Notes under the pieces: generated by a model
Told to the model about the DNA's origin: nothing
Databases searched by the model: none
The model's input: only the letters and a program-made list of their open reading frames with translations
Shown here: positions 18,723 through 18,750 of the stretch, piece after piece
How positions within the stretch are numbered: the first letter of the stretch is position 1
How the letters are laid out: each line of letters begins with the position of its first letter
Program-made: the position numbers and the translations under genes
NCBI GenBank assembly: GCA_944358755.1
Contig: CALVRY010000001.1
Coordinates: 1 to 34,079, forward strand
Direction: 5' to 3'
From: an uncultured Bacilli bacterium
Lineage (GTDB): Bacteria; Bacillota_I; Bacilli_A; RFN20; CAG-826
DNA length: 34,079 nt

Positions 18723-18750
18723 ACTTCGTATAATATCTATTATGTAAATT
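18723..18750 (+). other. dif: dif-like chromosome dimer resolution site (Xer target)
   Basis: The sequence is ACTTCGTATAA-TATCTA-TTATGTAAATT. By hand alignment to sequences recalled from memory, it matches 24/28 positions of B. subtilis dif and 20/28 of E. coli dif. It lies at the convergence point of the plus-strand and minus-strand gene blocks. Confidence 0.7.

Follow-up and report, generated by a model that had tools for sequence, protein, structure and literature searches.

Does the 28-bp sequence that lies between two converging gene arrays in this DNA serve as the chromosomal dif site of the organism, and does the DNA around it span the replication terminus? The window, by which we mean the whole stretch of 34,079 nucleotides that was analysed, is the entire contig C1 of an assembly of an uncultured Bacilli bacterium (1.108 Mb in 127 contigs, 30% GC and thus 70% A+T, 95.9% complete). 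A sequence-only reading of the window had proposed a dif-like Xer recombination site and a terminus at this position. It is established practice to predict dif from similarity, uniqueness and skew (PMC3025954). With a probability of roughly 0.93, we consider the 28-mer to be the chromosomal dif of this organism and the window to span its replication terminus; resolution of chromosome dimers at the site by XerC, XerD and FtsK would be expected by homology. The features discussed are collected in Table 1.

Table 1. Coordinates of the site, its neighbours and the corresponding features in two relatives. Positions without a prefix refer to the window; G100 is a sister species (locus L040), and G167 is a closed genome of the same family.
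Feature	Coordinates	Strand	Details
dif site, 28 bp	18723-18750	+	ACTTCGTATAATATCTATTATGTAAATT = ACTTCGTATAA-TATCTA-TTATGTAAATT
Probable XerC arm	18723-18733	+	ACTTCGTATAA; assignment follows E. coli and V. cholerae dif (PMC4246890)
dif central region	18734-18739	+	TATCTA
Probable XerD arm	18740-18750	+	TTATGTAAATT; assignment follows E. coli and V. cholerae dif (PMC4246890)
Spacer holding dif	yqeK stop 18702 (+) to stop of 183-aa gene 18891 (-)		188 nt
AT-rich imperfect hairpin between dif and next gene	18762-18807	.	ViennaRNA fold of 18751-18815, -14.7 kcal/mol
yqeK, HD-domain Ap4A hydrolase, last gene of left replichore	18079-18702	+	Pfam HD, NCBIfam TIGR00488
183-aa gene, last gene of right replichore	18891-19442	-	Member of a variable cassette
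parE-parC (topoisomerase IV)	11195-15761	+	NCBIfam parE_Gpos, parC_Gpos; 3-7.5 kb left of dif
XerD-like tyrosine recombinase gene, 294 aa	22625-23509	-	3.9 kb from dif; NCBIfam XerD 316.4 vs XerC 290.5 bits
XerC-like recombinase gene, 306 aa	C14:169-1089	-	Best score with XerC model; directly downstream of trmFO
Inovirus-like element in G100	L040 14785-20211		26% GC
Intact dif at one end of the G100 element	L040 14757-14784
Hybrid site at the other end	L040 20212-20239		ACTTCGTATAATATTAGTTATGATTACT = ACTTCGTATAA-TATTAG-TTATGATTACT
G167 cumulative G-C maximum	719,187
G167 dif homologue	719,220		33 bp from skew maximum
G167 cumulative G-C minimum	204,329		Inside dnaA
G167 dnaA	204,067-204,549
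G167 distance between skew extremes			48.5% of circle

The 28-bp site and its uniqueness

By inspection, the 28-mer has two 11-bp arms around a 6-bp centre and a partial dyad with inner ATAA/TTAT, so the 11-6-11 architecture that had been proposed for it holds. A recount of identities agreed with the hand alignment of the sequence-only reading: B. subtilis dif shares 24 of the 28 positions and E. coli dif 20. The two reference sequences used in that alignment are verbatim those printed in Kono et al. 2011 (PMC3025954). Compared with B. subtilis dif, which is likewise a 28-bp site, there are four substitutions (C6G, G9T, A15C, and C27T). E. coli dif shares the 11-6-11 layout and the inner ATAA...TTAT dyad, but differs in the outer XerC arm, ACTTCG here and GGTGCG in E. 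coli.

The two identities carry different weight. An i.i.d. model set to the genome's own base composition predicts, for 2 x 1.1 Mb, 0.0024 chance matches to B. subtilis dif at 24/28 or better, and the best match in each of thirty third-order Markov genomes reached 20-22/28. For E. coli dif, each genome should yield about six chance matches at 20/28 or better, and a match of 21/28 does lie on contig C7. The 20/28 identity to E. coli dif on its own is therefore at chance level, is not significant and carries no weight.

The site also stands alone in the assembly. The second-best match to B. subtilis dif has 8 mismatches. A position weight matrix built from the sites of relatives, with the window's own site left out, gave 41.9 bits for dif and 6.3 bits for the runner-up over the whole assembly; the profile search thus produced no better dif candidate elsewhere in it. 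The single copy is that of a 95.9%-complete assembly, whose unassembled 4% could hold a second, and the closed relative G167 also has a single copy. Exactly one copy with at most 3 mismatches was found in 19 of the 24 congeneric species genomes, and the reversed-pattern control gave 0. At the level of the order, the degenerate pattern ACTTCNYATAATNNNNATWATGTWA with at most one mismatch is present in 158/201 genomes (119/141 of the high-quality ones), usually once each, and its control gave one match overall in the 201 genomes. When relatives are aligned on dif, conservation is 94% across the 28 columns and drops to 55-57% in the 30-nt flanks. The variation within the 28 columns falls mostly in the central region and at the last positions of the right arm, the pattern that a dif should show.

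These numbers bear on the plainest alternative, that the 28-mer is a chance AT-rich quasi-palindrome in a convergent spacer and that the skew flip across it reflects a change of gene orientation only. The 70% A+T of the genome and the chance-level match to E. coli dif speak for it. They are set against the 0.0024 expected matches at 24/28, the island of conservation that the 28-mer forms within diverged flanks, and the usually single copy across the order with almost no control matches. The part of this alternative that concerns skew is taken up below.

Some genomes of the order carry two or three copies of the dif pattern (G156, G090, G054, G206, and G088), often at contig ends. Examples are C16:14-38, C16:332-356 and C28:20-44 in G156, C8:2-26 in G090 and C16:8-32 in G054; in G206 the copies at C136:8708 and 8857 are inverted. 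Copies in such places suggest that the assemblies broke at dif repeats on either side of integrated elements.

The spacer around dif separates two gene arrays of opposite strand. On its left, yqeH-yhbY-yqeK run on the plus strand and end at 18702, and every ORF on its right from 18891 to 34015 is on the minus strand, so that the ORF and gene calls bear out the strands that had been assigned to the flanking genes. The spacer had also been called the only long convergent one, which was overstated: 9887-10233 is convergent too, though it contains a 73-aa ORF. The hairpin that follows dif was missed by a simple terminator scan of the dif spacer, which gave no match, because it is too A+T-rich and has too few G-C pairs. 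The fold of the entire dif spacer was not significant (z -1.68). The hairpin, or palindrome, may be a terminator, possibly a bidirectional one, or a protein-binding site.

A related observation comes from the close relatives. A palindrome of the form CGAY-N2-7-RTCG, in most cases CGAT-N3-4-ATCG, with A- and T-runs on its flanks, starts 16-18 nt past the XerD arm in 9/22 of them, mostly congeners (L008, L009, L013, L014, L016, L020, L023, L024, and L040). It is absent on the other side of dif, and several more relatives have one-mismatch forms. At the family level it is scarcer, with 1/30 exact and about 10 with ATCG at equal distance. Several species have a version too weak for a good RNA hairpin. 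The spacer also holds CTACT/AGTAG pentamers with an 11-nt period, at 18844-18881 (minus strand) and 18700-18721; these occur at other gene ends as well and hence are not specific to dif.

Strand asymmetry and position at the terminus

On contig C1 the GC skew is +0.085 to the left of dif and -0.148 to its right, in agreement with the G and C flip that had been seen in spot counts, and the cumulative G-C maximum of the contig is at 18764, 14 nt past dif. Since the assembly is split into 127 contigs, the analysis used a per-contig scan, contigs of congeners and a closed relative in place of a whole-genome skew plot. A ranking of the 52 contigs that are 8 kb or longer puts the change-point of C1 at ~18,800 first (z 11.7), and it is the sole strong one from plus to minus. 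Contigs C8 (~12.9 kb) and C37 (~6.3 kb) of the same genome have switches from minus to plus with z of about -7.5; dnaA is on C63 instead.

The relatives place the skew maximum at the same point. In seven of them a 40-kb window has its maximum 24-204 bp from the dif homologue. Two congeneric contigs of ~236 kb have their whole-contig maximum 24 and 104 bp from the homologous site, which separates more than 100 kb of positive skew from about 100 kb of negative skew. In G167, a single contig of 1,061,998 bp, the maximum and dif are 33 bp apart and the minimum falls in dnaA, almost half a circle away (Table 1). The proposed skew switch and terminus are thus borne out in the organism's own contig, in the longer congener contigs and in the closed chromosome of a relative. 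The location opposite oriC is as in E. coli; as in B. subtilis, the chromosome is of the Firmicutes type, has strongly co-oriented genes and carries dif at its terminus.

A change in gene orientation by itself can mimic such a switch, and here the total skew is strongly coupled to it. Within genes the third-position skew is opposite in sign to the total skew, the total skew tracks the coding strand, and overall GC skew is largely driven by gene orientation. The window has 3 opposite-strand genes, too few to separate replication from transcription skew, and G167 was used for the separation. Its top-strand third-position skew is about 0.2 higher in the ori-to-ter replichore for both gene orientations (-0.066 vs -0.278 and +0.266 vs +0.075), with 79-81% of genes co-oriented with replication on both arms. 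As the replichore effect is present in both gene orientations, the skew switch is not a matter of gene orientation alone. The genome G008 has the same additive third-position pattern, and the congener G006 had no clean replichore effect on GC3 skew. This orientation-independent effect, together with a G167 maximum next to dif and opposite dnaA, weighs against a chance origin of the 28-mer as the sequence statistics do. We give the chance explanation practically no probability, and it is refuted as far as computation goes.

The recombinases, FtsK and the gene neighborhood

A dif site of the classical type is expected to have two recombinases. The XerC/D-family gene that had been read from the window is present and matches the XerD profile best. 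Among solved structures its product matches E. coli XerD best (PDB 1A0P, E 1.8e-50), and the alignment pairs the catalytic residues R, K, HxxR, H and Y. The sequence-only reading had seen one xer gene and suggested looking for a second elsewhere in the genome; it was found on contig C14, adjoining trmFO. The two paralogues are 37% identical to each other and both have complete catalytic motifs. Both score slightly under the NCBIfam equivalog cut-offs and above the cut-off of the subfamily model NF001399, and their PDB scores to E. coli XerD are a near tie (175.5 vs 169.6 bits). The names XerC-like and XerD-like are accordingly best-score calls combined with synteny, and they are to be read as probable. 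G167 has exactly two tyrosine recombinases, one of them beside dif. A third, divergent recombinase of 273 aa, encoded among phage-like genes on contig C121 of the window's own genome (L003 1459-2280, minus strand), probably has no connection with dif and serves as the integrase of a prophage or mobile element.

Contig C41 encodes the one FtsK of the genome (837 aa), with FtsK_alpha, FtsK_SpoIIIE and FtsK_gamma domains. The gamma domain is a likeness to E. coli FtsK. B. subtilis has the two translocases SpoIIIE and SftA, whereas the present ~1.1-Mb reduced genome has a single FtsK-family translocase. A search of G167 for KOPS or SRS gave no convincing FtsK-orienting polar motif, and no KOPS-like counterpart of the E. 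coli signals was established. Among polar k-mers in G167, GGGNAGGG was found 21:3 on leading versus lagging strands but is rare, and GAAGAAG was found 613:365; the most skewed k-mers resemble codon and orientation effects.

If dimer resolution follows the B. subtilis and E. coli scheme, sister chromosomes that cross over an odd number of times would end up as a chromosome dimer. The XerC-like protein encoded on C14 would sit on the left arm of dif and the XerD-like protein encoded in the window on the right arm, with two dif copies synapsed at the septum. FtsK would move the DNA to dif and activate XerD for the first strand exchange, and XerC would resolve the resulting Holliday junction. Binding, catalysis, the order of strand exchange and FtsK dependence are proposed here by homology with characterized systems (PMC5357621, PMC4246890).

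The gene order around the site is stable. Within the genus, beyond it in the family and again in a second family, yqeH-yhbY-yqeK, dif, an optional cassette, deoB and xerD follow one another, with yqeK as the conserved left neighbor of dif, and the xerD-like gene is 2-5 kb from dif in 10/10 relatives examined (nine and G167). parE-parC occupies the same place, 3-8 kb away on the opposite side of dif from xerD, in six congeners and in G167; this linkage to dif is conserved but is not required for the dif call.

The linkage of xerD to dif raises the possibility that the dif-linked XerD-like protein acts alone, in the manner of XerS/difSL or XerH/difH, and that the C14 paralogue has another job. 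The stable distance of 2-5 kb across the order recalls the pairing of recombinase and site in XerS/difSL of streptococci and lactococci and in XerH/difH of epsilon-proteobacteria (PMC1914069, PMC5357621), and xerD is usually far from dif according to Kono et al. (PMC3025954). Those systems, however, have a single recombinase, an atypical site and the gene directly beside it, whereas here a classical 28-bp 11-6-11 site with two different arms goes with two paralogues. difSL is 31 bp long and the ~356-aa XerS is encoded directly adjacent to it; the protein here has 294 aa, its gene is 3.9 kb away, and it scores 123.5 bits with the XerS model NF003462 against a cut-off of 267. Two paralogues with full catalytic motifs have been kept, and they are the sole tyrosine recombinases in G167. 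We therefore regard a single-recombinase system as unlikely and favor a classical dif served by both XerC and XerD.

Synteny also argues for the two-recombinase arrangement. The XerC-like gene adjoins trmFO, as codV does in B. subtilis, where CodV (XerC) and RipX (XerD) act at dif. B. subtilis thus shares with the present genome two Xer paralogues of which the XerC-like one is next to trmFO, and it differs in the position of the xerD-like gene, which here is 3.9 kb from dif in a linkage conserved across the order.

Several further genes cluster at the terminus. The conserved order over 11195-26150 is parE-parC-(yqeG)-yqeH-yhbY-yqeK, dif, ...deoB-xerD-dinB-xseA. In six congeners the genes for topoisomerase IV, Xer, a Y-family polymerase and exonuclease VII are all within 8 kb of dif. 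parE, parC, yqeK, deoB and xerD also surround dif in the closed G167, and in a genome of another family (G032) only xerD-dinB are still linked. The parEC-dif-xerD-dinB-xseA neighborhood and the CGAT-N4-ATCG palindrome could be lineage-specific accessories of the terminus. Between dif and deoB, a cassette at 18891-21357 encodes the 183-aa orphan, an ABC permease and a 344-aa protein without family matches; the 183-aa product had no Pfam (E <= 0.01) or NCBIfam match. The cassette is present in some relatives and missing in others (G003, G018, L005, L019, and L023), where deoB directly follows dif.

An inovirus-like element at dif and the meaning of the site

A sister species, G100, has an element inserted at the homologous position (contig G100:C3, CASFZJ010000003.1; L040). 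Its DNA is ~90% and its XerD 97% identical to that of the window. The two sequences are colinear on both sides of dif, and in G100 a 5,427-bp insert interrupts this colinearity exactly at dif; an intact dif borders the insert on one side and a hybrid site on the other. The junctions do not differ along the XerC arm and the first three bases of the central region, beyond which they part, and the right arm of the hybrid site matches dif at 7/11 positions. The element encodes a P-loop protein that matches Pfam Zot at 20.9 bits, marginally above the cut-off, a rolling-circle Rep (58 bits with Rep_OBD) and several small hydrophobic proteins. Its anatomy resembles that of the VGJphi/TLCphi kind of IMEX, filamentous phages of V. 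cholerae, in the Zot and Rep genes and in the pair of intact and hybrid ends. Judged from the junctions, it was probably integrated by Xer recombination (IMEX mechanism classes are described in PMC4246890). The differences from VGJphi/TLCphi are that the host is a reduced-genome gut bacterium of Gram-positive lineage and that the element lies outside the window's own genome. That genome has no DNA or protein match to the G100 element, so the window shows the empty site. An element placed precisely at dif is indirect evidence that the site is active; recombination at dif in the window's genome is predicted.

Related sequences point to free viruses. In tblastn searches, all matches to the Zot-like and Rep proteins of the element were small circular inoviruses recovered from animal faeces. 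For Zot, the best of them is bajarodino virus 71 from rodent faeces (PQ006122.1, L150; 5,276 bp; 39.5% identity, E 9e-41). This genome has a dif-like sequence, AGTTCGCATAATCTATATTATGTTAACA, at 2041-2068, between the Rep gene (1446-2018) and the next gene (2117-2323), and AGTTCGCATAATCTATATTATGTTAACA closely matches the dif pattern of this bacterial family. We consider AGTTCGCATAATCTATATTATGTTAACA a candidate attP, and with it a pointer to this Bacilli family as the host. In three other related inovirus genomes no convincing dif-like site was found.

Larger collections gave a wider and less specific picture. Neither the exact G100 hybrid site nor, by peptide patterns, any relative of the Zot-like protein was found in IMG/VR, and PHROGs gave nothing useful for the G100 element. 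The dif-like pattern TTCGYATAATNNNNATTATGTWA occurs in at least 118 viral contigs of IMG/VR, with a median of ~8 kb among 80 loci (L154-L233). These matches fit widespread dif-like attachment sites in small phage genomes, and among the 80 loci, of the at least 118, no relatives of the G100 element proteins were found. Within the bacterial family, an element of the G100 type is present in 2/151 genomes. On balance we lean slightly towards the view that dif of this lineage is the target of 5-6 kb faecal inoviruses that hijack the host XerC/XerD, which is the IMEX lifestyle.

An element at dif invites the converse interpretation, that the 28-mer of the window is itself the attachment site of a mobile element or a scar at its end, such as an IMEX att site or the border of a pdif-type module, and not a functional dif. 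The cassette to the right of dif (the 183-aa orphan, the ABC permease and the 344-aa protein) varies among relatives, and the sister species does carry an element at dif, as this interpretation would have it. Against it, the 28-mer is the sole dif-like site in the assembly, with no second partial site flanking the cassette, and the inovirus-like element has no match in the genome. Its position and orientation relative to yqeK and xerD are constant across genera, and it lies at the skew switch. An attachment site or scar is thus very improbable, and a chromosomal dif remains the favored interpretation of the 28-mer. Separately, a 16-nt identity on contig C62 to the right half of dif was judged a coincidence, because there are no IMEX genes anywhere in the window's genome.

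The site is a classical dif of a well-known kind, and its departures from the textbook cases are modest. Since its biology is that of the textbook, the site itself is nothing unexpected. Its value lies first in the genome that carries it. dif fixes the terminus of a fragmented MAG of an uncultured, reduced-genome Bacilli bacterium, and with the terminus the layout of the replichores is fixed. This helps scaffolding, the interpretation of strand bias and the spotting of elements integrated at dif. If the inovirus interpretation is true, it would give host-less faecal inoviruses a host assignment and an integration mechanism, and would make the element a non-proteobacterial IMEX; the pair of an empty site in the window and an occupied site in G100 links small faecal inoviruses to the host lineage via dif. 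The finding also means that a full XerC/XerD/FtsK system for dimer resolution, as predicted by homology, has been kept in genomes of ~1.1 Mb.
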